Source: Escherichia phage SHIN8
DNA length: 58,460 nucleotides
Direction: 5' to 3' (one strand)
Sequence record: PP627280.1
Under the pieces are notes generated by a model. The model was not told the DNA's origin. It saw only the letters and a list, made by a program, of their open reading frames with translations, and made no database searches. Within the stretch, counting starts at the first letter, position 1; every line of letters starts with the position of its first letter. Both the position numbers and the translations under genes were made by a program. Of this stretch, positions 2,107 to 38,353 are shown one piece after another.

Positions 2107-3603
2107 ATGGGTATTGATGCAACTCACCCGCTATATGACAAGTGGAAGGACGCATGGGTTAAGTGCAACGACTGCTATGAGGGTGAAGATAAAATTAAGG
2201 AAGAAGGTGTTAAATATCTACCACCTTTAGCTTCCATGATTATTGATGGGATGAATAATCCTAATGATTTGGGCTTTCAACGTTGGCTCGCTTATCGTCT
2301 GCGTGCTAACTTCCCTGACGATTATTCAAGTGCGGTTACAAACAATTTAGGTCTGCTACACCAGAAGCCTCCTACAATCCAGCTCCCACCTGAAATGGAA
2401 TACATGCGGGAGCTGTGTACTGCGGACGGTGAAGACATTATTGCTCTGCTACGTCGCATCAATGAAATGCAGTTAAAAAATGGACGTTTGGGCCTGCTGC
2501 TGGACTTGCCGAAAGGTGAGGATGTAAATAACAGACCTTATATTAGCGTTTATGATGCTTTATCCATTATCAACTGGGATGATGGTAAAGATGAATTGGG
2601 CAATATCAACTTGAACATGGTTGTTCTGGATGAAAGCGGTCCTGTACGTGTCAATCAGTTTGACTGGAAAGAAGAGAAGCGTTATCGCGTTCTACAATTA
2701 GGTCCAATGGACACAGATGAAGTAGCAGGTGGAGCGGTCTACTCCCAACATCTGTTTATTAACAATACCAATTATGATGAAGGGCAAATGATTGCTCCTT
2801 ATTATAAAGGTAATACGCTGGATGAAATTCCTTTCCAGTTTGTCAATACAACAGATATTACCCCAGCACCGGAAGCGCCGCCATTGTTGGGTCTTGCTAA
2901 CATTTGTCTAAGCATGTACCGAAGTGACGCGGATTACCGCCAATGCTTGCATATGCAGGGTCAGGATACTTTAGTTGTTGTTGGTGGTTCCATGGAAAAT
3001 GGAGATAAAGCCCCTCAGCGTATTGGTCCTGGTGCAGTCATTAACGTTTCTCAGGGAGGTGACGCTAAATATGTAGGTGTTAGCGGTGACGGTTTGTCCG
3101 AGCAACGTCTCGCACTGGCAGCGGATAAGCAGGAAGCCCAAATTAAAGCCGGGCAAATGGTAAACAATACCAAGAGTACGCAGGAATCAGGCGAAGCTAT
3201 GAAAACGCGTATTGCTGCGCGTACAGCTAGTTTGATTCGAATTGCGTATACTGGTGCGGCTGGTTTGGAGAACTTGCTGAAGGTTTGCGCTAAGTGGATG
3301 GGTGCTGATCCCGAGAAAGTTGTGGTCAAGCCTAATCTTGAATTTACCAAGAGCATGTTTAACGGTCAGGACTTTGTTCAAATTATTACTGCACGCAACC
3401 TTAAAGCTCCGATCAGCTTGCAGTCTATTCATGGCTGGCTCGTTGATCAAGGCTTAACCACACTAAGCTTTGAAGAAGAAATGGCAATTCTTGAAGAAGA
3501 GCTTAAGAAGTGGCCTCTGCCCGATGATGCTAAAGCTGATTTAAACGCAGAGCAGCAAGTAAGTAAAGATCCTAAGGAAGACAACGCTTCCGATAAAGAA
3601 TAG
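2107..3603 (+). CDS. portal protein
   Basis: 498 aa, immediately after terL and before scaffold/capsid; acidic C-terminus. Confidence 0.7.
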   Translation: MGIDATHPLYDKWKDAWVKCNDCYEGEDKIKEEGVKYLPPLASMIIDGMNNPNDLGFQRWLAYRLRANFPDDYSSAVTNNLGLLHQKPPTIQLPPEMEYMRELCTADGEDIIALLRRINEMQLKNGRLGLLLDLPKGEDVNNRPYISVYDALSIINWDDGKDELGNINLNMVVLDESGPVRVNQFDWKEEKRYRVLQLGPMDTDEVAGGAVYSQHLFINNTNYDEGQMIAPYYKGNTLDEIPFQFVNTTDITPAPEAPPLLGLANICLSMYRSDADYRQCLHMQGQDTLVVVGGSMENGDKAPQRIGPGAVINVSQGGDAKYVGVSGDGLSEQRLALAADKQEAQIKAGQMVNNTKSTQESGEAMKTRIAARTASLIRIAYTGAAGLENLLKVCAKWMGADPEKVVVKPNLEFTKSMFNGQDFVQIITARNLKAPISLQSIHGWLVDQGLTTLSFEEEMAILEEELKKWPLPDDAKADLNAEQQVSKDPKEDNASDKE

Positions 3604-3698
3604 TTGCAACTTCCAAGTTGATCGGTTTATATTAACGAACACGGGGCTGGGACGGCTCAGCTCCAAAAACGTCACACGGGTGACAACGGAGATAAGAA

Positions 3699-4571
3699 AT
3701 GAAAAAGAGTTCTGTAGCTATTAGTGTTGGTATGGCTTTAATTAATCCACGCGCTCGCGGTGAAGGTGACGTGGAACTGGAATACGAATATGCATCTGCG
3801 GAAGAAATCCCGGCAGAGTTTGCAACTCTTTACGCAGAGCAGGGCGGTAAATACGTTCTTGCAAAAGTTAAAGGTGTAGCCCCCGCTGATAGCGTTCGTC
3901 GTCTGGAAAGTGCATTAGCAAAAGAACGTAACGACCATCGTCAGGTGAAGCAACAGATTAGCGCACTTGGGCGTCCGGTTGAAGAAGTCCTTGCGGACCT
4001 TGATCGTATCCCTCAACTGGAAGCTGCCGCTAACGGTAAAGGTACTCCGGAAGACATCGAAAAGATGGTTAAAGCCCGTCTTGCTCCGCTTGAGCGTCAA
4101 TTGCAAACTGTAGCAGCTGAACGCGATTCCGTTAAGCAGGAAATTGAAGGCTACCGCACTCGCGAAACTAAAGCGAAGATTAAAGACGCAGTTATTGCTG
4201 CTGCATCCGGTGCTAAGCTGCGTCCGTCTGCTATCGAAGATGCGGTGACTTATGCACAGTTGCAAATGACCGTCGACGAGAACGGCAATGTGGTTACGAA
4301 AGATGGGGCGGGTGTAACTCCATACCTAACCCCGGCGGATTGGCTTAACGAGATCCTCCCGAAACGTCCTCACTGGGTTGAAGGATCTGCTGGTGGTGGT
4401 GCATCTGGTCCGGGCGCTGGCGGACATCACGGCGAAGACCCTTACAGTCACGACGGTTGGAACATCTCTAAACAGATGAATCTCTGGAAAACTAATCAAT
4501 CTTTAGCTAAACGCTTAGCTGAAAAGAATGGCGTAGACCCGCTGAAGCCTGTACGTCCTGCTAAGAAATAA
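3699..4571 (+). CDS. head scaffolding protein
   Basis: 290 aa, charged and coiled-coil-like, between portal and major capsid. Confidence 0.55.
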   Translation: MKKSSVAISVGMALINPRARGEGDVELEYEYASAEEIPAEFATLYAEQGGKYVLAKVKGVAPADSVRRLESALAKERNDHRQVKQQISALGRPVEEVLADLDRIPQLEAAANGKGTPEDIEKMVKARLAPLERQLQTVAAERDSVKQEIEGYRTRETKAKIKDAVIAAASGAKLRPSAIEDAVTYAQLQMTVDENGNVVTKDGAGVTPYLTPADWLNEILPKRPHWVEGSAGGGASGPGAGGHHGEDPYSHDGWNISKQMNLWKTNQSLAKRLAEKNGVDPLKPVRPAKK

Positions 4572-4585
4572 GTTGACATCCCGAC

Positions 4586-4618
4586 GTCCCTGATGTTAAG
4601 TTTCAACACATCAGGGAC
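4586..4618 (+). promoter_or_regulatory. perfect 11-bp hairpin between scaffold and capsid genes
   Basis: GTCCCTGATGT-11 nt-ACATCAGGGAC, no T-run; TTGACA hexamer at 4573-4578. Confidence 0.35.
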
Positions 4619-4693
4619 ACGGGTTCCTAAACAGCCTTCCACGGGGAAAGGCTACCAACAGTAAACAAATCAATCCTTTTCCTGGAGACAAGT

Positions 4694-5755
4694 ATGTCTA
4701 AATCTAAAATTATTCTACCATTTGGTCGTGGTGAAACTGACCTGACTCGTTTGAAGGATGTCATTGTCCCTGAGATCTTCACTGGTTATGTGCAGACGCA
4801 GACCGCTGAACTTTCTGCCCTGATCCAATCCGGTGCGGTTGTGATGGACGAGCGTTTATCAGCTAACCTTGCTGGTGCAGGTCTGACTTTTAACGAGCCG
4901 TTCTATAACGACCTGAAAGATGAAGACGAAGATATCGCGGTTGATAAAGGTAATCCGTCAAAACCGTCTAATATCACTACCGGATCTGAAGTTCAGGTTC
5001 GTATGAGTCGTTCAAAATCCTGGGGTTCTGCGGATCTGGTATCAGCTTTGATCGGTAACGACCCAATGACCGCTATCGGTAACCGCGTGTCTGCGTGGTG
5101 GGTTCGCCGTCTGCAAGCTGCATACATCGCAACCTGGAAAGGTGTATTTGCTAATGCGAAGAAATCTCATAACGACGATTTGACTTTCGACATTTCTGGC
5201 GAGTCCTTTACGAATAACCAGACCAACTTTACCGCGTCTAACTTCATCAACGCAACTGCAACGATGGGTGATGCTGCTCGCGGTCTGACCATGATTATGG
5301 TACACTCTACCGTTCGTAACCGTATGCGTCAGTTGAACCTGATCGACTTCATTCCAGATGCTCGCGGTGAAACTCAGTTTGAGTATTATCAGGGTCTGCG
5401 TATTATTGAAGACGACTCCATGCCGCACGATCCGTCTACTGGTATCTTTGAAAGCTGGCTGTTCGGCCCGGGCGCTACTGCAATGGGTGCTGGTTCACCG
5501 AAAGTTCCGACCGCCGTGGTTCGTGACGAAGCCGCTAACCAAGGCGCTGGTGAAGAAGTTCTTCACAACCGTGTTGAATGGATTCTGCATCCGGTTGGCC
5601 ATGCTTGGGCTGCTGCTCAAACTGCTAAAGGTGGTCCGTCTAACGCTGCTACCACTAACAACCTGGCCCATGTAGATTCCTGGCGTCGTGCGTTCCCTGA
5701 GCGCAAGCAGCTTAAAGTTGCACGCCTGATCACTCGTGAGTATCAGGGTTCCTAA
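4694..5755 (+). CDS. major capsid protein
   Basis: 353 aa after scaffold; followed by a strong intrinsic terminator. Confidence 0.7.
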   Translation: MSKSKIILPFGRGETDLTRLKDVIVPEIFTGYVQTQTAELSALIQSGAVVMDERLSANLAGAGLTFNEPFYNDLKDEDEDIAVDKGNPSKPSNITTGSEVQVRMSRSKSWGSADLVSALIGNDPMTAIGNRVSAWWVRRLQAAYIATWKGVFANAKKSHNDDLTFDISGESFTNNQTNFTASNFINATATMGDAARGLTMIMVHSTVRNRMRQLNLIDFIPDARGETQFEYYQGLRIIEDDSMPHDPSTGIFESWLFGPGATAMGAGSPKVPTAVVRDEAANQGAGEEVLHNRVEWILHPVGHAWAAAQTAKGGPSNAATTNNLAHVDSWRRAFPERKQLKVARLITREYQGS

Positions 5756-5776
5756 GGCTTCACTCAACGCCGCGCT

Positions 5777-5803
5777 GTAGTATTTTGGGGACATCTTATG
5801 TCC
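5777..5803 (+). terminator. intrinsic terminator after major capsid gene
   Basis: GGGGACAT-ctt-ATGTCCCC followed by TCTTTTTT. Confidence 0.6.
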
Positions 5804-5825
5804 CCTCTTTTTTAGGAGAACAACC

Positions 5826-6149
5826 ATGCGTTATCAACGTTATGAGCGACATGACTTGATGGAAAAATCGTTGCAGGTGGAGCCAATTTCGATTACTCTC
5901 GATCCTGCTAAGATTGACACCACAACTTCAGAAGTAAAAACGGTTACTGTTAAAATAAACTTTGTCCCAGGCGGAACTACAAACAAAGCGTATAGCGCGT
6001 CAGTTGACGGTTCCTCTGCTACAATTAAAGACAACGGGGACGGTACAATTACCGTGACCACAACCGCAAGCAGTGGTACTTCAAACTTGACAGTAACGTC
6101 CAAGGCAAAGGATAGTGTTACTGGTACATGTGTTATTAATGTGACCTAA
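5826..6149 (+). CDS. Ig-like (Big_2-type) domain protein, possible head decoration
   Basis: 107 aa, Thr/Ser-rich beta-strand pattern (TVTVKINFVPGG...TITVTTTASSGTSNLTVTSKAKDSVTGTCVINVT); AGGAGA RBS. Confidence 0.55.
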   Translation: MRYQRYERHDLMEKSLQVEPISITLDPAKIDTTTSEVKTVTVKINFVPGGTTNKAYSASVDGSSATIKDNGDGTITVTTTASSGTSNLTVTSKAKDSVTGTCVINVT

Positions 6150-6165
6150 AAATAAGGATTAAACA

Positions 6166-6819
6166 ATGAAGACATTAATTGAAGCATTGTTAGAACTTGA
6201 TCCGGATAACCCGAATCATTGGACTAGCGACGGTCTACCTAAAGTTGACGCTCTGCGTTTCGCTACCGCTAACCCGTCTTTAACTCGCGACGATATTACA
6301 ACTGCTGCTCCGCTGTTTACCCGCGATAACCGCGTGCTGGAAGAGCCCGAGTCAGTGGAACCTGTTAAATCTGCTGACCCAGTTTTACATGAAGCAGTTA
6401 AACAGGAGAAAGCTCATGAAGAACAAAAGAAAGTCGCGGTTGCAACGATGCAAATCGAAGTTAAGATTAGCGAAGCACTGCGTGCTATTCTGGAGCCGGA
6501 AAAAATCGGTGACACTTCCAGCTTAACCGATGAAGAACTGAAAGCGAAGCGCGAAAAGCTTAGCAATGTGGTTAAAGAGATTGCCCACACTAAGCACGCG
6601 TTGGAGCTCGCTATCTCAGACGTTCAAGCGGATCTGGATAAGATTATCGTTGAGCAGGAGCGTCGTCGTCCTAAGTCCGGTCTTACTGCAACTCAGATGT
6701 ATCTTGAAGCGCAGAAAAAACGTAAACCGGAAGACATGCTTTCTGACCATCGCTTCCAGAACCCTATTGACGATCCGGTCGCCCGTATGGTTGCACGTAA
6801 TATGATGCGTCGAGGTTAA
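6166..6819 (+). CDS. hypothetical structural protein
   Basis: 217 aa in head module. Confidence 0.4.
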   Translation: MKTLIEALLELDPDNPNHWTSDGLPKVDALRFATANPSLTRDDITTAAPLFTRDNRVLEEPESVEPVKSADPVLHEAVKQEKAHEEQKKVAVATMQIEVKISEALRAILEPEKIGDTSSLTDEELKAKREKLSNVVKEIAHTKHALELAISDVQADLDKIIVEQERRRPKSGLTATQMYLEAQKKRKPEDMLSDHRFQNPIDDPVARMVARNMMRRG

Positions 6820-6871
6820 CCATGGAAATGAGCCATAGACAATATGTGTTGTGGCTCCTCCGACGTAATAG

Positions 6872-6900
6872 AAAACGGCGTCAAGAAGACGCCGTTTCTG
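6872..6900 (+). terminator. putative terminator or RNA hairpin
   Basis: AAACGGCGTC-aagaa-GACGCCGTTT followed by CTGTT. Confidence 0.35.
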
Positions 6901-6957
6901 TTCCTGAAGAAGAGCTCCCGCCGCTTATCCCTACAACCATCGCAATGAGGAAGAAAG

Positions 6958-7464
6958 ATGGAGATTCCACTGATAGTTGAAGATGGTACTGGTGTACCGG
7001 ACGCCAACAGTTATGTCACCATTGAACAAGTCCGCATGTATGCAGCAATGCGAGGTATTGTACTTCCAAGTGAAGACGAAGATCTAAAGACAAAGATCTT
7101 TGACGCTATGGATTTTGTGGAAGGGTACAGCCAACGCTTTAAAGGTTATAAAATTAACCCACAGCAACCGCTAAATTGGCCACGCTACGGGGTGTTTGTG
7201 GACGGGTTCGAGCTACCCCAAAGCCCCTTACCAAAGGCGCTTATAAACGCTGTTTGCCAGCTTACAGCGGACTCAGCTACTGGCGGTCCTCTTAATGGGA
7301 AAACTACTGCATATGCAGTCAAAAGAACTAAAGTAGAAGGTCTTGAGATTGAATACGCAACTGGTAGCACAGCACAGTCAGGTCCAGCAAAAACATATGA
7401 TAAAGCTATGACGTTTTTATCACCTTTGCTGGGTTATCAAATGGGTAATAGACTGATACGGTGA
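6958..7464 (+). CDS. head-tail adaptor/connector (putative)
   Basis: 168 aa, position between head and tail genes; RBS AGGAAG. Confidence 0.45.
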   Translation: MEIPLIVEDGTGVPDANSYVTIEQVRMYAAMRGIVLPSEDEDLKTKIFDAMDFVEGYSQRFKGYKINPQQPLNWPRYGVFVDGFELPQSPLPKALINAVCQLTADSATGGPLNGKTTAYAVKRTKVEGLEIEYATGSTAQSGPAKTYDKAMTFLSPLLGYQMGNRLIR

Positions 7465-7467
7465 TTT

Positions 7468-7848
7468 ATGAGCTTTCCTTACGAGCAGCTAGTTGAAGCT
7501 GCAAAGCAAATGATCAACGATGCAGGTGTTAACTGTACCCTTGTTGTTATGGAGCAAGGGGAAGGTCAAGATGAATGGGACGATCCGAGCGTTGAAAAAC
7601 GATACCCATTCATTGGAGCTTTCCTTTCACCGAAGGAAAAGATGATTGGCGGCAGTCTTGTTTCTGCTGGTGAACTGAAAGTGTTGACTTACCCAATGAC
7701 ACCTCCATTGACTCGCGATAAAGCAATGACTGCACGCATTGAGCGTGTGTCGCCGGATGGGGAACTGGAAGTGTGGACAATAAATGAGTTTGTTGATACA
7801 CGACCAGCTAACGTTTCTGTTCTTTACACTTTTAAGGTGACGCGATAA
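7468..7848 (+). CDS. head-tail joining protein (putative)
   Basis: 126 aa, tightly packed in neck module. Confidence 0.4.
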   Translation: MSFPYEQLVEAAKQMINDAGVNCTLVVMEQGEGQDEWDDPSVEKRYPFIGAFLSPKEKMIGGSLVSAGELKVLTYPMTPPLTRDKAMTARIERVSPDGELEVWTINEFVDTRPANVSVLYTFKVTR

Positions 7849-8255
7849 TGGGATTCGGGGCGGATATTCGACGTGCAAGTCAGAAGGTACTTGTTCAGAC
7901 AAGCGAACAGGCCAAAAAAGTCGTTGTCAAGTTCACAGAGAACGTGATACAGGATACTCCTGTTAAGACCGGACGTACAAAAGGTGGTTGGCGGTCATCC
8001 ATTGGTGCGCCGTATGCAACGGAAACTATCCGCCTCGATCCTACTGGAGAGATGGCTAAAGCTGAAGCCCGAGTTGTTGCACGCCAACTACCTAATGATA
8101 AAGACTGGACTTTCTATTTTAGCAACCTGACACCATATGCTGGCAAACTGGAGTTCTTAGGTTGGTCGCAGCAAGCTCCGAACGGTATGGTTCGTATTAA
8201 CGTAGCGAAGCTTCCAATGTTGATACGTCAAGCTATAGCAGAAGGAAAACTATAA
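7848..8255 (+). CDS. HK97 gp10-like neck/tail completion protein
   Basis: 135 aa; IQDTPVKTGRTKGGW resembles gp10-family motif; ATGA overlap with upstream gene. Confidence 0.5.
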   Translation: MGFGADIRRASQKVLVQTSEQAKKVVVKFTENVIQDTPVKTGRTKGGWRSSIGAPYATETIRLDPTGEMAKAEARVVARQLPNDKDWTFYFSNLTPYAGKLEFLGWSQQAPNGMVRINVAKLPMLIRQAIAEGKL

Positions 8256-8704
8256 TGCTTGGATACGATTTCATTAATGATGCATTTAATAAGATGCTAC
8301 GCGAAGCAGTTGGACCGGATATTGGTATAGCGTGGAAGAATAAGAAGTTCACACCTAAAGCCAACCAGATGTGGTTAAAGGCAATCAATGCTCCCGCTTC
8401 CACTTACGCTGCAACGCTAGGTGATAACGGTCTGAATGAAATTCCAGGCTTCTACCAAATCACAGTATATAGCCCTTTAAACACTGGAACGTCTAAGCAG
8501 AATCAAATCTTGGATTCTATTCGGAAAAAGTTTAAACTGGGCTTGCGTATCCCGTGCCCGGATGACCACACGTTACGGATCGTCAGTTTAGACTTTTCGC
8601 AAGGTGGACAAACTTCGCTGAACGATTTTACCAAAGGCGGGGTTGAAGATAACTGGGACGTTAACTTTATCACAATCTATTGGTCGGCTCGTGAGCCGAG
8701 GTAA
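8255..8704 (+). CDS. tail completion/terminator protein (putative)
   Basis: 149 aa, precedes major tail protein. Confidence 0.4.
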   Translation: MLGYDFINDAFNKMLREAVGPDIGIAWKNKKFTPKANQMWLKAINAPASTYAATLGDNGLNEIPGFYQITVYSPLNTGTSKQNQILDSIRKKFKLGLRIPCPDDHTLRIVSLDFSQGGQTSLNDFTKGGVEDNWDVNFITIYWSAREPR

Positions 8705-8718
8705 GAGAGGATCTAAAT

Positions 8719-9642
8719 ATGGCTACAGGTTCACGTTATTCGTGTTACTACGTCAAAGAAGATGTAAGCAACACTACGCCAGCGAGTGCGAAGTTTACTC
8801 CGTTCCGTGTGACCAGCTCCGGTCTGGACATTAATATTGCAACGCTGGAATCTGAAGAACTGCGCGATGACGCTGAAACTGCGGACTTCCGCCTCGGTGC
8901 TCGCAGTGTTGAAGGTACAGTAACGGGCGAAATGTCCTTCGGCACCTTCGATGATCTTATTGCTGCTGCACTTCGTGGGGAGTGGCAAGACAACGTCCTT
9001 AAAGGCGGTATTATCCGTCAGTCATTTACTTTCGTAGACTATAACGCAGATCTACCGTCAGGTAAATATACAATTTATCGCGGTTGCGAAGTTAATAGCA
9101 TGACTTTCTCATTGTCTGCGGAAAACATGACCACAGTGGAATTCGGTATTGTTGGTCGCTCAATGGAAATTGCGGAATCGCTCCCATCTGGTGCAACTAT
9201 CAAAGAGCGTACAACTACTTCACCGATGGATGGTTTCTCCGGCCGCTTGCTGGAAAACGACGAAGAAATCAGCGTTATTACGGAAATCGGTCTTACCGTT
9301 GAAAACGATATTGCACCACGCTTTGTTGTTGGTTCTAAGTTCTCCATTGAACCGTCCGCTGGTCGTCGTGCGGTAACTGGTACAGCTAACGTGTACTTCC
9401 TGGATAACAAGCTGCGTATGAAGTATCTGGATGAAGTGGAAACTTCAATCAAGTTTGATCTGATTGACCCAAGCAATCCGGAACAAAAATACACTGTGGA
9501 AATGCCTCGCGTGAAGTTCACTGAAGCTCCACGTCCTATTGACGGCGAAGGGGATATCATGCTTAATATGGGCTACCGCGGATTGCTGGACCCAACAACC
9601 GCAAGTTCCATCAAAATTACCCGCGTTGTAGCGGGAGCCTAA
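8719..9642 (+). CDS. major tail protein
   Basis: 307 aa, directly upstream of chaperone and tape measure. Confidence 0.55.
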   Translation: MATGSRYSCYYVKEDVSNTTPASAKFTPFRVTSSGLDINIATLESEELRDDAETADFRLGARSVEGTVTGEMSFGTFDDLIAAALRGEWQDNVLKGGIIRQSFTFVDYNADLPSGKYTIYRGCEVNSMTFSLSAENMTTVEFGIVGRSMEIAESLPSGATIKERTTTSPMDGFSGRLLENDEEISVITEIGLTVENDIAPRFVVGSKFSIEPSAGRRAVTGTANVYFLDNKLRMKYLDEVETSIKFDLIDPSNPEQKYTVEMPRVKFTEAPRPIDGEGDIMLNMGYRGLLDPTTASSIKITRVVAGA

Positions 9643-32234: not shown

Positions 32235-33047
32235 TTACAAGCCGTTCAGGGCTTCCGGTACTGGCATAGGCACACGGCCAGTTACACCATTAAACTTCTT
32301 CCAACGTGCATACTGAGTTTTAACGGTATCTTCGTTCAGACCGTGGCGACCAGCCAGATTCAGAACATAAGAGATCGGAGCAGGCTGACCCAGCGTAGCG
32401 CTAATCTGATCCATCAGAGCCCAGGCACGACCGCAGGAAGTCTCAGGTTGTGGACGACGAACACCATTCTGTTCAGGCATACGGTTCGCTTCTTTCGCTT
32501 TTTCACGTTCAGCTTTTTCGCGGGCTTTTTCAGCAGCCTTTTCAGCCTGTTTAGCAGCGCGGATCTTGTCTTTGAAGCCTTTGATAAACGAATCCAGTTC
32601 GTCAACCATGCTCTGAGCAGCACTTACTGCACCGGACAGATCTTCATCTTTGGATTTTTTAACAACTGCTTTCAGCTCTTTCAGTTTATTCTTAAAAAGC
32701 TTCAGCTGTTCAGAACCCTGAAATTCAGCTACCGTAATCTCTTCAATAGTGCCTTTATCGGCAACATCGGATAAAACAGACCTCACGGTTTCAACTCCGC
32801 GGGAAAGAGCGGTAAATTTATTTTCCGCTACAGCACGAATTTCAGCTTGTTTCTTTTCAGCGGCAGCTTTTTTCTCTGCTTCTTTTTTCTCTTTTGCTAC
32901 GCGTGCAGCTTCAGCAGCAGCGGCTTTTTTAGCCTCTGCGTCGTTAGCAGTAGCTTCTTTCTTTGCAGGCTTAGCAGATTTTGCAGCGGCAGCAGCGGCT
33001 GCGGCAGCAGCGGCTTTCTTATCTTCAATATTACTCATTTTCTTCAC
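32235..33047 (-). CDS. Ala/Lys-rich low-complexity protein, possible histone H1-like DNA-binding protein
   Basis: 270 aa; N-terminal AAAAAAAAAAKSAKPAKK and AKKA repeats; structured C-terminal domain. Confidence 0.4.
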   Translation of the reverse strand: MKKMSNIEDKKAAAAAAAAAAAKSAKPAKKEATANDAEAKKAAAAEAARVAKEKKEAEKKAAAEKKQAEIRAVAENKFTALSRGVETVRSVLSDVADKGTIEEITVAEFQGSEQLKLFKNKLKELKAVVKKSKDEDLSGAVSAAQSMVDELDSFIKGFKDKIRAAKQAEKAAEKAREKAEREKAKEANRMPEQNGVRRPQPETSCGRAWALMDQISATLGQPAPISYVLNLAGRHGLNEDTVKTQYARWKKFNGVTGRVPMPVPEALNGL

Positions 33048-33719: not shown

Positions 33720-35702
33720 TTAGAACGGGACGTAATCCGGATCATCTACTTGTACAGGGTTAACCACATTGTTCACCGTTATGCCTTGCGTATTCTGCGA
33801 AACAATATCGTCCCAGCTTACATCATCGTTATAGCTCGGACCTTCTGTTGTTCCATCCTGCCCGTATACTTTAACCTGAATAGCTTCGTCGTCCTGTGGA
33901 GCTTCAAACTTACCGAAACAAGTACCATCATAATCATAGTTCAATATCTCAGGCCATTTCTTATTGGTATGAACTTTGATGTATTTTGGTGTTTTAAGCA
34001 TTGCAGCAACATCAAGAGCTTCTTCAATAGTTTGTGGTAAAGGTAAATGTGTCCTTTTCTTCCACCATGCAACAGCTTTACGACCTGCCCAGTCCCCATG
34101 AAGCAGAGCTACCCATTCACTGAATATTTTACTACCGCAATAATAAGTCACCTTCATTGTTGGAGGTTTAGAGCTGTCATTGCGTTTAGTATGCTTTGCA
34201 TAAGTAACATGCGTAACTTTGAAGTCTTCAACTACTGGAATATCCTGCTTGATCAGGGCTTCCGTACTTGCAGCTTTCTTGAGTTTGGTCTGGAACTTAA
34301 ACTCATGACCGCAAAAGCCTTCTTTAACGTAATCCGTCCCGCGTAGCCTAAATCCTTTCAGATATAATTGTTGAACTTGTTCCTGTGTGACGCTGTCCAT
34401 TGGGATTGGTGCGAAGCCACCGCAATAGCGAGCGGATGCATGATTATACGACCCACATACATCGCATTCTTTAACCGGAGCAGTACCAGCACCTTTTTCG
34501 CCAGGGCGCTTGGGTTTAACAGGGTCGTTAATAGGGCCCAAACGGCGCGTATTGCCGCTGAAATCCAGTACAAGGCAGTTCTGCTTGGGGCTTGCCGCAA
34601 TAGCTTGTAAGCGCCCCTCCTGCGTGGAAAGATCAAAGCCCTCCGCGTACACCGGACGCGTACCGCGACCCAGCATCTGGACCCATAGCACCGCCGACGC
34701 AGTTGGGCGGAGCATGATAATTAAGTCCAGCATTGGATGATCAAAACCTGTGGTTAAGACGTTATTGTTAGTTAATGCACGAAATTCACCGCGCTTGAAC
34801 TTTTCAATAATCTCGTCACGTTCTTTTGCATCAAGCTTAGAGTGAATACATCCACAGCTAATACCCATATCGTTCAGCATATCGCAGGCGTCTTTAGCGT
34901 GTTCAATACCAGAACAAAATATAAGCCAGCTTTGACGGTCTTCACCACATTCAATCGCTTCCTCAAGTGCGCGGAGTGTTGCGTCATCGCGGTTTACCGC
35001 ACTTTGCAGCTCACTCTGGATAAACTCACCGCCGCGTTTACCTACCCCGTTGATGTCCAGCTCCATCTTAGTACGCTTTGGCACAACCGGAAGAAGATAA
35101 CCTTGCTCCAGGAACCAGTTAAAGGCTTCCGGAGTAGTTGCATCGAACGTTACCTTATCAAATAACGCATCATCGTCTTCGTTTTCCTTGACAATTGAAC
35201 CATACCCCAGTCGATAAGGTGTAGCAGTAAGGCCGATGATTTTTAAGTAAGGGTTAACTTCACGCAACGCTGCAAAGAACTTCTTATACATTGTTGCATC
35301 ACGCGGACTAATAAGATGCGCTTCATCCACAAAAATAAGATCAACTTTGCCGAACTTTTTCGGATGCTTAGCAACGGACGCAATCCCTGCAAAGGTAATA
35401 AGATTGTAGACTTCTTTACGCTTCAAACCCGCGCTGTAAATACCTGCTGGCGCTTCGGGCCAGACTTTCATTAATTTATCATAGTTTTGTGCAATTAACT
35501 CTTTGACGTGAGTTAACATCATTACGCGCTGGTTTGGATACCATTTGTAAAGCAGATCGAGGAACCCCGCGATAACGAGCGATTTTCCTGTCCCTGTTGG
35601 TAACAGGATCAAAGGGTTCCCCGCGTTACCCTTTTCAGCATCAAAATAGCGGAATACGCTATAAACTGCTTCCTGTTGATAATCGCGGAGCCTCATAATC
35701 AA
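33720..35702 (-). CDS. DEAD/DEAH-box superfamily 2 helicase
   Basis: 660 aa; Walker A LPTGTGKS; FVDEAHLIS; zinc-ribbon CDVCGS...YCGG. Confidence 0.7.
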   Translation of the reverse strand: MIMRLRDYQQEAVYSVFRYFDAEKGNAGNPLILLPTGTGKSLVIAGFLDLLYKWYPNQRVMMLTHVKELIAQNYDKLMKVWPEAPAGIYSAGLKRKEVYNLITFAGIASVAKHPKKFGKVDLIFVDEAHLISPRDATMYKKFFAALREVNPYLKIIGLTATPYRLGYGSIVKENEDDDALFDKVTFDATTPEAFNWFLEQGYLLPVVPKRTKMELDINGVGKRGGEFIQSELQSAVNRDDATLRALEEAIECGEDRQSWLIFCSGIEHAKDACDMLNDMGISCGCIHSKLDAKERDEIIEKFKRGEFRALTNNNVLTTGFDHPMLDLIIMLRPTASAVLWVQMLGRGTRPVYAEGFDLSTQEGRLQAIAASPKQNCLVLDFSGNTRRLGPINDPVKPKRPGEKGAGTAPVKECDVCGSYNHASARYCGGFAPIPMDSVTQEQVQQLYLKGFRLRGTDYVKEGFCGHEFKFQTKLKKAASTEALIKQDIPVVEDFKVTHVTYAKHTKRNDSSKPPTMKVTYYCGSKIFSEWVALLHGDWAGRKAVAWWKKRTHLPLPQTIEEALDVAAMLKTPKYIKVHTNKKWPEILNYDYDGTCFGKFEAPQDDEAIQVKVYGQDGTTEGPSYNDDVSWDDIVSQNTQGITVNNVVNPVQVDDPDYVPF

Positions 35703-36607
35703 TCTTTCCCGTAATAATTAGCTACTTGATAGTTTTGACAACCAACTTTCTGTCCTTGCGTATCCACTGCGACGGAATGGAAATTGCAATACCATGTTCC
35801 ATCTTCTTTAGGTTCAAGGAATTGGCATGTGCGGCAGTTTACTTCCGGCATAGTTTTACGCCAGCATAGTGAGGAGTGATCGCACCATTTACATTCGAAG
35901 AAAGTGGAATCTTTAAATGCGCGGTCCGGAATATCTGTAGCAATAGCAATCTGCACACCACGATCAATATACATGTCCGCGGTAACAGGATCAAACGGAA
36001 TAATTTCTGCGTAAACTTCATCGTCATTCTTGTTTACAGCAAGATATAACGCTGCGCCAAGACCTAGTTTTCGCATGTACACGTTCATCTGTACATAGTG
36101 TTCAGGTTTAGCTTCTTTGACACCTTTAGCTTTCAGCTTTTTAAAAGACTTATCGTTATGTGTCTTCATTTCGGTGAGCACAGGCATCCCAGGCTGCACG
36201 TCCGGACAACCTATAACCACACCATCGCAGGAACCGCCAAAGTGTCCGCCAGCTTCGCTGATACGGAACTGGTGTCCGTTTTCGTCCTGCTGGTAGACCT
36301 GCATACCTGCCGCAAGCAGCATAGCAATGAAACGGGCTTCTTCCAGATGTCCGCGGTTAAACAGTCGAAGCTGGCGTCCGTCAAACTCTTTGCGTGTGGC
36401 CCAGCGATATCCATAGAAAAGCTTGCGTGCGCATTGCTGCCCAATAAGGGAAGCGCCTAAGTGACTGCGGTTACCGCTTTCAGGGCGATAAGCGTCTTCA
36501 ATTGTGGGAATGACTACGCCAAGATACTTACGGTAAGTCCCACCCTGATCTTTTTGCACACCGTCATTGATCGCTTGAAGTGTTTTTTCTGCAATATAAA
36601 TAGCCAT
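35699..36607 (-). CDS. PD-(D/E)XK nuclease, Cas4/RecB-like with C-terminal Cys cluster
   Basis: 302 aa; D...EMK and QMNVY motifs; CKWCDHSSLC...CRTC. Confidence 0.55.
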   Translation of the reverse strand: MAIYIAEKTLQAINDGVQKDQGGTYRKYLGVVIPTIEDAYRPESGNRSHLGASLIGQQCARKLFYGYRWATRKEFDGRQLRLFNRGHLEEARFIAMLLAAGMQVYQQDENGHQFRISEAGGHFGGSCDGVVIGCPDVQPGMPVLTEMKTHNDKSFKKLKAKGVKEAKPEHYVQMNVYMRKLGLGAALYLAVNKNDDEVYAEIIPFDPVTADMYIDRGVQIAIATDIPDRAFKDSTFFECKWCDHSSLCWRKTMPEVNCRTCQFLEPKEDGTWYCNFHSVAVDTQGQKVGCQNYQVANYYGKD

Positions 36608-36672
36608 TGGAATACCTTAGAAAAATAAGCCGTCTTTCGACGGCTTATGGACACTACAGAGGGAGGGTTATC

Positions 36673-37560
36673 TTACTGCTGCCACGGCGGGACTGCTGCT
36701 TGTGCCGGATGCGGTTCAGCTTGCTGCTGCGGCTGAGCTTGCTGCTGAGGTGCTGCTGCTTGGCCAGGCTGTGCTACCTGCTGCGCCCACGGCTGCTGAG
36801 CTGCTTCCGGTGCTACTGGCTGTTGTACCGGAGCTTGCTGCACTGGCTGCTGTGGTGCTGCGTTTTGAGCAGGATTATCCCACGGCTGCGGTGCGGCATT
36901 CTGCCACGGTTGTGCTGCTGCGCCCTGCTGTGGTGCTGGTTGCTGCTGCACAGGCTGCTGAACTGGCTGCTGTTGCTGCACCGGAGCTTGCTGCTGTACA
37001 GGCGCTTGCTGTTGCTGAGCAAACGGGTTAGCTGCTGGTTGCTGTGGTGCTGCGCCCGGGAAAGCTGGCTGCTGTGCTGGCGCACCTGCACCGAACGGGT
37101 TAGCTACTGCCGCTTGAGCACCCATTGCTGGAGCACCTGCTTCTTTTTCCGCATACTTAACCGGATCGTTAATGTTAGCATAACCGTTAGGCTCGTTGCT
37201 GTCTTCATAACCTTCCTGAGAACGAACTTTCAGACGCAGGTTCAGCGGAATGTTATGCAGTTGAGCAGGAGTATCCCAGCGAATTACGCCAACCGCATGG
37301 GAAAGCGCGCCCAGTTGTTCGTATGCGATACGCACAGTATCTTCGTTGTCGTTGATAACGTTGTAACGAGCAAAGATTTTACGACCTTTGGCAAAACCAT
37401 CAATGATGCTAAACGTTACCTGGATCGCCATACCGCCATTTTTGGTCGGTTTAAATTCAGATGCTTCAATTACTGCTTTATACCAACCTTTCGGCAATGC
37501 GCCGTAAGAAGGTGCTTGATAGCTGCTCGCGTCAAAGTGGAAATTAGTTGGCATAGTCAT
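36673..37560 (-). CDS. ssDNA-binding-like protein with Gln/Pro/Ala-rich C-terminal tail
   Basis: 295 aa; globular N-domain ~140 aa then low-complexity QQQAPVQQ repeats; next to Sak4-like ATPase. Confidence 0.4.
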   Translation of the reverse strand: MTMPTNFHFDASSYQAPSYGALPKGWYKAVIEASEFKPTKNGGMAIQVTFSIIDGFAKGRKIFARYNVINDNEDTVRIAYEQLGALSHAVGVIRWDTPAQLHNIPLNLRLKVRSQEGYEDSNEPNGYANINDPVKYAEKEAGAPAMGAQAAVANPFGAGAPAQQPAFPGAAPQQPAANPFAQQQQAPVQQQAPVQQQQPVQQPVQQQPAPQQGAAAQPWQNAAPQPWDNPAQNAAPQQPVQQAPVQQPVAPEAAQQPWAQQVAQPGQAAAPQQQAQPQQQAEPHPAQAAVPPWQQ

Positions 37561-38288
37561 TAGTTAATACCTTTCATTTTGTTGATAACAGAACCTAAGT
37601 GTGGGACTTCAACCGCATCTAAACGTCCCGAACGATCCTTAGCGATTGTATTAAAGTCCGGTTGAGTTTGCAAGTAACGATACGAGTTACCTTGCTGATC
37701 CTTATTTACATTCAGACGAAATACTTCGTCGAAGAAGTAAGGGAGCATTTGCCCCAATTTGGATCCAGGCATAGATGGAGCATACGCGGTAACACCGGAG
37801 ACTTCATCTTTGTCTTTGCCCATTTTAGCAGACATATAAACATGTTTGCCAGGAATATCGCGAAATTTACGGATCAGATCTTGCATCTTTTCAAGCAAAG
37901 TACCATAAGCTTGACGAGGATCTTTCGTTCCCTTTTTCGCGTTGTTTAAACATTGTTCAGCAATTTCGCTCAAGCTGTCAAGCGCAATAGAATCGAAATA
38001 CTGCTGGTTAGCTGGAGTTACGCACCACTGATAAGCCGCTTCAACGTCTTCCAGACATTTCACTTCAATTACCGGAATATCGTAAACGATGGGCAAACCC
38101 ATGTTACCATAAACACGGTTAAGGTTTTCCGCTGCAATAGACAACAGACCGGATTCTGCGCTGATTAAAATTGGTTTAGGTAGTGTGGCTACAAGGCTGG
38201 TTTTACCCATACCTGCTTCACCGTAAACCAGAATTTTAACACCTGTGTCCTGCACAACTTGTGAAGACATTTTAATTTCAATGGCCAT
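37560..38288 (-). CDS. RecA-like ATPase (Sak4-type recombination protein, putative)
   Basis: 242 aa; N-terminal Walker A GEAGMGKTS. Confidence 0.55.
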   Translation of the reverse strand: MAIEIKMSSQVVQDTGVKILVYGEAGMGKTSLVATLPKPILISAESGLLSIAAENLNRVYGNMGLPIVYDIPVIEVKCLEDVEAAYQWCVTPANQQYFDSIALDSLSEIAEQCLNNAKKGTKDPRQAYGTLLEKMQDLIRKFRDIPGKHVYMSAKMGKDKDEVSGVTAYAPSMPGSKLGQMLPYFFDEVFRLNVNKDQQGNSYRYLQTQPDFNTIAKDRSGRLDAVEVPHLGSVINKMKGIN

Positions 38289-38353
38289 TTAACGCCTCTC
38301 TTTTAAGTTCGCGCTCATTGTAACGTAATATACTTTGAACCCTCAATTACTTT

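Follow-up and report, generated by a model that had tools for sequence, protein, structure and literature searches.

A putative Sak4-SSB-exonuclease-helicase recombination cassette in Escherichia phage SHIN8 and the conserved non-acidic tip of its SSB

The 58,460-nucleotide (nt) stretch of Escherichia phage SHIN8 analysed here (sequence record PP627280.1; the window) carries three adjacent minus-strand genes for a small Sak4-like ATPase, a single-stranded DNA (ssDNA)-binding protein (SSB) of the DUF669 family and a Cas4-like nuclease, which together with the following gene for a RadD-like helicase probably form a resection-coating-annealing system for recombination-dependent replication, concatemer formation and break repair. 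The initial annotation, made from the letters of the window, had placed the three genes at 35699-38288 and likened them to phage single-strand-annealing modules. The open reading frames (ORFs) lie at exactly these coordinates, and the profile searches gave Cas4-domain exonuclease, SSB/DUF669 and Sak4-like matches, with the homology to the SSB and Sak4 families on which the initial annotation had made its reading depend. The PHROG E-values of all three proteins ranged from 1e-59 to 1e-140, so the matches are far beyond chance.

At 90-99% identity the 2.6-kb region matched 34 sequenced phages. Nearly all of these are Escherichia phages of the genus Seuratvirus (subfamily Queuovirinae), including SeppeHuegi (99.2%) and CAjan (98.9%), and by sequence the SHIN8 stretch is that of a Seuratvirus coliphage. 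The CAjan RefSeq record lists gp49 as "Cas4-domain exonuclease", gp50 as "hypothetical protein" with a DUF669 note, and gp51 as "Sak4-like ssDNA annealing protein". The identities of the Sak4, SSB and nuclease are already in RefSeq by homology, and the initial annotation coincides with them; in the literature searched, no experimental work was found on these particular Seuratvirus proteins.

The ATPase (242 amino acids, aa) can be classed from its sequence as a Sak4-like, putative ATP-dependent annealase. It matched Pfam AAA_24 (E 1.2e-27, 97.4 bits against a cut-off of 27) and phrog_124 "Sak4-like ssDNA annealing protein" (E 1.7e-59), and NCBIfam gave only "phage nucleotide-binding protein", below the cut-off. 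The Walker A motif (G23-x2-G26-x-G28-K29-T30) and the Walker B Asp104 were invariant in an alignment of SHIN8 with phages 9g, 73 and HK620, in agreement with the small RecA-like ATPase with N-terminal Walker A that had been read initially. The architecture, with N-terminal Walker A and B motifs and neither RecA's N-terminal nor its C-terminal domain, is of the Sak4 type. The gene also lies beside a phage SSB gene, an adjacency that was detectable in 39 of 50 related loci. Over its full length (246 columns, E 3e-30) the protein is 28% identical to gp032 of Pseudomonas phage 73, a tested Sak4 for which in vivo oligonucleotide annealing was shown by Lopes et al. 2010 (PMC2896510).

The middle protein is supported as a putative OB-fold (oligonucleotide/oligosaccharide-binding) DUF669 phage SSB by profile matches and by its predicted structure. 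Residues 8-144 matched Pfam DUF669 (PF05037; E 2.4e-14, 54 bits, gathering threshold 21), several PHROG SSB families were also matched, and PF05037 was present in all listed homologues. An AlphaFold2 model built from 121 homologues showed an N-domain of about 140 residues with a predicted local distance difference test (pLDDT) value above 90 (roughly residues 20-140) and an OB-fold-like order of beta-beta-beta-alpha-beta-beta, whose best structural match was PrgE. Sequence searches of the Protein Data Bank (PDB) gave no usable match for the Sak4, the SSB, the nuclease or the DUF669 profile; the only hit of the DUF669 profile, the P/Q linker of ZipA, was discarded as compositional.

The tail of the SSB (residues 146-295) consists of 33% Gln, 25% Ala and 20% Pro, contains no Lys or Arg, has a net charge of -3 and was predicted to be disordered (pLDDT <50). 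The globular N-domain and the long Gln/Pro low-complexity tail of the initial annotation were thus both recovered, but the tail is not unusual as had been stated: a long tail is the norm in this DUF669 clade, whose homologues measure 240-350 aa (242-349 aa among the 120 best). What is conserved in the tail is its end. The C-terminal residues are …EPHPAQAAVPPWQQ, and close relatives, although in-frame changes make them vary from 262 to 302 aa, keep the C-terminus …VPPWQQ. W293 is among only five invariant columns of the 121-sequence alignment, and the mid-tail QPW (W227) is more than 90% conserved there.

The possibility that this conservation came from a word-index bias toward Q/P-rich tails was rejected, as an index-free HMMER scan of 1.84 billion representatives (50% identity) with the N-domain alone gave the same result. 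Among the 150 best hits, 146 had a Trp in the tail. With a single exception, the last such Trp stood 1-11 residues before the end of the protein (median 5), and in 115 it was preceded by Pro-Pro. The Gln share of the tail ranged from 0 to 62% across these hits; Trp made up 2.6% of the tail residues, and 57% of these Trp stood directly after Pro. In the viral loci anchored on the nuclease, PPW occurred within 12 residues of the end in 54 of 58 distinct SSBs, and three of the four others had xPW at 13-14 residues.

An acidic C-terminal tail has been given as typical of DUF669 proteins (Kazlauskas et al. 2016, PMC4889955). The SHIN8 SSB ends in VPPWQQ, with net -3 over 150 residues, and acidic tails were flagged in only about 3 of 150 relatives, two of which had SSB-like tips (…DDVPPFE and …DDDSDLPF). 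This DUF669 clade departs from the published description, and its unusual part is the conserved non-acidic PPW end, a motif of which the full-text literature search gave no description. The overall architecture of OB domain, disordered linker and short conserved tip is still SSB-like. In phage HK620, the last six residues of the SSB (NDYPPF) are needed for Sak4 loading and stimulation (PMC5928155); by this analogy, PPW would most likely serve to dock a partner protein, for which Sak4 is the first candidate.

The nuclease matched phrog_1990 "Cas4-domain exonuclease" (E 6.6e-118), and its model (pLDDT 93) showed a high-confidence PD-(D/E)XK fold. Its structural matches were PD-(D/E)XK superfamily nucleases that act 5'->3' in recombination and repair, namely LHK-Exo (12.7), lambda exonuclease (11.6), Cas4 SSO0001 (11.2), Dna2 (10.2), a Cas4/Cas1 fusion (9.5), Exo5 (9.3) and RecE (8.9). 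Among 121 homologues D128, E146-M-K148 and Q173-x3-Y177 were invariant, as were the Cas4-type cysteines C59 and C239-x2-C242-x5-C248 and a second set, C258-x2-C261…C274…C290. This second set belongs to a small beta-rich module at the C-terminus and probably forms a zinc ribbon or another metal site. The initial description as a PD-(D/E)XK nuclease with a four-Cys cluster holds for the fold, the motifs and one cluster, but two invariant Cys4 sets are present, not one. No Pfam match was obtained up to E 10 (including Cas_Cas4, PDDEXK_1 and YqaJ) and no NCBIfam hit, and the genome annotation contained no cas genes or CRISPR components. Since neither a curated Cas4 model nor a CRISPR context was matched, the protein is called Cas4-like and not Cas4. 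Compared with the Cas4/RecB-family and lambda-exonuclease-type nucleases, it adds a conserved N-terminal helical extension and the C-terminal CxxC…C…C module.

For the gene order in other phages, a locus search seeded with DUF669, which lacks a conserved stretch, failed and the nuclease was used as the anchor; 80 viral-contig loci were fetched, and counts were made on the 50 with more than 2.5 kb of upstream sequence. The DUF669 gene was directly upstream of the nuclease on the same strand in all 50 (50/50). A Sak4 detectable by phmmer preceded the DUF669 gene in 39, and in 10 (L040, L042, L059, L061, L065, L068, L069, L074, L077 and L084) its slot was taken by a different P-loop ATPase of 275-293 aa with the Walker A variant …EK[MV]GKTT, not detected by phmmer with the SHIN8 Sak4. 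A helicase followed the nuclease in nearly every locus that extended far enough. The order Sak4-SSB-nuclease-helicase was also found in phages 73, Ab26 and 9g, the last of which (Nonagvirus) has the four cassette genes with the same ligase and RNase H neighbours. The functional unit is four genes, with the RadD-like helicase included.

The fourth protein contains ResIII and Helicase_C domains. Its best NCBIfam hit was heli_RadD_YejH (E 4e-78), with 263 bits against an equivalog cut-off of 720, and Escherichia coli RadD (PDB 6jde) aligned to its residues 2-348 (E 9.5e-55); by sequence it is RadD-like, below the RadD equivalog level. RadD of E. coli speeds up strand exchange by RecA and binds to the C-terminus of SSB (PMC8887467, PMC10238739). 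The C-terminal residues of the SHIN8 helicase are …NPVQVDDPDYVPF, ending in …VDDPDYVPF, and the phage 9g helicase ends in …DFDDDIPF, which is the E. coli SSB tip (quoted in PMC10238739). An acidic x-P-F end was found in 114 of 120 helicase homologues and in 54 of 57 helicases of viral contigs; selection bias is unlikely, since the query shares no five-residue word with DDDIPF. The phage 73 helicase has no acidic tip, and one relative with an acidic-tipped SSB keeps the acidic tip of the helicase too. The literature searched held no relevant description of DDDIPF-type SSB-tip mimicry in phages.

Binding of the helicase tip in cis to a RadD-type SSB pocket was considered and found unsupported: the pocket arginines R21, R49 and R145 of RadD (numbering of PMC10238739) align by phmmer with Asp, Asn and Lys, so that two of the three are not conserved and one position is still basic. 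The tip may bind host SSB-client proteins, the phage SSB or Sak4. The D-Y-V-P-F of the helicase also resembles the D-Y-P-P-F at the HK620 SSB tip.

The features of the cassette are listed in Table 1. The stop codon of the Sak4 gene overlaps the start codon of the SSB gene in the sequence TAATG, only 2 nt separate the nuclease stop codon from the helicase ATG, and a 65-nt gap lies between the SSB and nuclease genes. This gap holds a hairpin with a 10-bp stem, a GAAA loop and a U-run (predicted -18.3 kcal/mol, z -4.1 against shuffles), and two related GenBank records have "terminator" annotated beneath the matched region. The hairpin probably keeps the levels of nuclease and helicase below those of Sak4 and SSB; it would fit a high expression of the stoichiometric proteins and a lower expression of the enzymes. 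The promoter candidate upstream of the Sak4 gene has 9 of 12 consensus matches, and such sites in the region were not above shuffle expectation. A plus-strand ORF of 318 aa (36607-37563), antisense to the SSB gene, was dismissed as non-coding, being a Leu/Cys/Arg-rich by-product of the low-complexity tail.

Table 1. Positions of the cassette genes and their parts in the window
Feature	Position	Strand	Size or basis
Sigma-70-like promoter candidate 5' of the Sak4 gene (TTGAGG, 18 nt, TACAAT)	38317..38346	-	consensus scan, weak
Sak4-like core-only RecA-type ATPase, putative ATP-dependent ssDNA annealase	37560..38288	-	242 aa; AAA_24, phrog_124
DUF669 SSB gene (putative SSB)	36673-37560	-	295 aa ORF
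DUF669 OB-fold domain of the SSB (about aa 1-141), predicted	37138..37560	-	
Disordered Gln/Ala/Pro-rich linker of the SSB (about aa 142-295), predicted, with four Pro-Trp motifs (W219, W227, W258, W293)	36676..37137	-	pLDDT <50
C-terminal PPW tip of the SSB (P291-P292-W293, then QQ and the stop codon)	36682..36690	-	alignment conservation
Intrinsic-terminator-like hairpin in the SSB/nuclease gap	36625..36648	-	
Cas4-like / RecB-family PD-(D/E)XK exonuclease with Cas4-type Cys4 and extra C-terminal Cys4 module	35699..36607	-	302 aa
Second Cys4 module of the nuclease (residues about 258-293)	35729-35836	-	
RadD-like SF2 (superfamily 2) helicase/translocase, fourth cassette gene	33720..35696	-	658 aa
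Acidic tip of the helicase (VDDPDYVPF), SSB-C-terminus-like	33723..33749	-	

In the proposed resection-coating-annealing system, the PD-(D/E)XK nuclease, probably aided by the adjacent helicase, would resect DNA ends 5'->3' and expose 3' single strands, which the OB-fold SSB would coat together with the lagging-strand ssDNA at the fork. The PW motifs of the disordered tail and the terminal PPW may then recruit partners to the SSB-coated DNA, most likely the Sak4 ATPase by analogy with HK620, which would anneal complementary strands using ATP. The expected outcome would be concatemers, recombination-dependent replication and repaired broken genomes, with the nearby ligase, RNase H and RusA completing the processing, while the TAATG overlap may couple the translation of Sak4 and SSB. 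In transcription order, the cassette is immediately preceded by the genes for ligase, RNase H, dUTPase and RusA. No other SSB or recombinase was annotated in the near-identical CAjan, and since the DUF669 protein is the sole annotated SSB there, the module probably serves replication too and not recombination only. S. aureus phages need Sak4 and Ssb to replicate and to form concatemers (PMC5499656), and DUF669 proteins have been proposed as replicative SSBs of phages without a known SSB (PMC4889955).

Several points weigh against this reading. The support is computational, and the roles are taken from protein families; in particular, the polarity of the nuclease and its presumed iron-sulphur (Fe-S) content come from family membership only. 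The Sak4 of phage 73, when used alone, gave recombineering about 2000-fold below Red-beta (PMC2896510). The tail of the SHIN8 SSB has no acidic tip of the kind that mediates the interactions of the HK620 and E. coli SSBs. The HK620 and SHIN8 SSBs gave no match with BLASTP and 2% probability with hhalign using the DUF669 profile, and the HK620 SSB had no DUF669 hit in the copy of Pfam searched. The published link between the SSB of phage N4 (N4SSB) and DUF669 was likewise not reproduced (10% probability with single-sequence hhalign).

Three other explanations were weighed, all of which fit the conserved synteny and the fold matches less well than the resection-coating-annealing system. The set could serve the replisome rather than recombination, with the ATPase acting on SSB-coated DNA to load or remodel a helicase, primase or clamp, a purely replicative SSB, and the nuclease processing flaps or primers. 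The cassette does stand among genes for polymerase, processivity factor, primase, ligase and RNase H, no SSB other than its DUF669 protein is annotated, AAA_24 as a family is generic, NCBIfam goes no further than a nucleotide-binding protein below cut-off, and 10/50 loci have a different P-loop ATPase in the Sak4 slot. Even so, such an accessory role is unlikely, as the ATPase is similar over its full length to the phage 73 Sak4 that is active in annealing in vivo (PMC2896510), the HK620 Sak4 anneals ssDNA in vitro (PMC5928155) and the fold of the nuclease is that of the enzymes of recombination end-resection; the two roles are moreover compatible, since the replication of S. aureus phages needs Sak4 (PMC5499656).

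It is less probable still that the tail of the SSB mainly couples transcription in the manner of N4, with the PPW tip binding not Sak4 but the host's RNA polymerase. A link between N4SSB and DUF669 has been published (PMC4889955), late transcription via the beta' subunit depends on the C-terminal residues of N4SSB and not on its DNA binding (PMC4496689), and N4 also has a Sak4-like gene directly upstream of the SSB gene; but the N4SSB C-terminus is basic (…SLFGKK) and without PPW, the relationship to DUF669 was not reproduced by profile comparison, and PPW is kept across phages of hosts as different as Pseudomonas, Vibrio, Rhizobium and Alteromonas, for which a phage-encoded partner fits at least equally. 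The Cas4-like fold and cysteine pattern would also suit a nuclease directed primarily against the host or its defences, by degradation of host DNA or interference with CRISPR adaptation, and merely placed beside recombination genes. Its strictly conserved position between SSB and helicase (50/50 loci), the 2 nt that part its stop from the helicase start, the presence of lambda exonuclease, RecE and Dna2 among its best structural matches and a genome annotation free of CRISPR components make this very improbable.

The module is real but ordinary for its phage group, being of the known Sak4-SSB-exonuclease kind, and as a recombination module it adds little to the homology annotation in RefSeq and to a Sak4-SSB partnership already established in other phages. 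The neutral PPW tip of the SSB and the host-SSB-like tip of the helicase are lineage-wide and apparently undescribed in the literature searched. A tentative proposal, possible but rather doubtful, is that Queuovirinae and their relatives have rewired the SSB interaction code, such that the neutral PPW and the PW motifs of the linker replace the acidic …DDDIPF-type tip and form a private recruitment hub of the phage, while the RadD-like helicase, with its copy of the host SSB tip (identical in 9g), taps or decoys host SSB-binding proteins. If this were true, phage ssDNA would be insulated from the nucleases and helicases that are clients of the host SSB, and selected host factors would be brought to the phage helicase. 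The value of the cassette lies in offering a well-populated family, tractable in E. coli, for how Sak4 engages SSB-coated DNA, and the conserved SSB-like tip of the helicase makes phage manipulation of the host SSB interactome directly testable. The compact set of Sak4, SSB and exonuclease from a virulent coliphage is also a possible alternative recombineering system.

Outside the cassette, a minus-strand ORF of 270 aa (32235-33047) is of low complexity and rich in Ala, Lys and Glu over its long N-terminal half, which includes a poly-Ala run; it matched phrog_11298 (unknown function), and the CAjan annotation gives it an FtrA transcriptional-activator domain. Transcriptionally downstream of the helicase (CAjan 2808-8468), the cassette is separated from the polymerase/clamp genes, according to the CAjan annotation, by a 7-deazaguanine (preQ0) DNA-modification cluster, with a queuine tRNA-ribosyltransferase-like DpdA, FolE, QueD, QueC and QueE as members.

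Among known systems, phage HK620 (Hutinet et al. 2018, PMC5928155) likewise has a gene for a small core-only RecA-like ATPase immediately upstream of, and overlapping, that of a non-canonical SSB, and its Sak4 anneals ssDNA in vitro and needs its cognate SSB. Both SSBs have Pro-Pro followed by an aromatic residue at the C-terminus. The HK620 protein measures 195 aa and has a short acidic tail ending exactly at Phe, whereas that of SHIN8 has a near-uncharged tail of 150 residues in which the Trp is followed by two or more residues; Abc2 stands in HK620 in place of the Cas4-like nuclease and the RadD-like helicase. The HK620 Sak4 matched that of SHIN8 around the P-loop only (E 0.01). Phage N4 (7521-9119) has its Sak4-like gp44 directly upstream of the N4SSB gene (gp45), and an exonuclease and a primase immediately precede the two. 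This arrangement suggests that the pairing of ATPase and SSB predates the families that sequence can detect; N4SSB and gp44 were also compared as relatives of the SHIN8 SSB and Sak4, and the comparison gave no support. PrgE of plasmid pCF10 (PDB 8S4S) is an experimentally proven DNA binder (PMC11137577); compared with the SHIN8 SSB it has 144 aa, no long tail and 11% identity, also binds double-stranded DNA and stands in a conjugation-related context. E. coli RadD (YejH) and the phage helicase have similar motor domains, and each is linked in function to an SSB and to a protein of the RecA family, but the phage helicase itself bears the SSB-like acidic tip.

Since the HK620 pair is only remotely related, phage 73 (PA73; Septimatrevirus) was taken as the characterised relative. 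It has the same order of Sak4, DUF669 SSB, Cas4-domain exonuclease and SF2 helicase as SHIN8, with clamp and polymerase adjoining. The tail of its SSB is rich in Gln and Gly, contains xW motifs repeatedly and ends in …AAPWGQR, and differs in that most of the tail motifs are AW or GW and not PW. The phage 73 nuclease differs by an insertion of about 50 residues. The nuclease of Ab26, of the same genus as phage 73, is 33% identical to that of SHIN8, with the second Cys module included.

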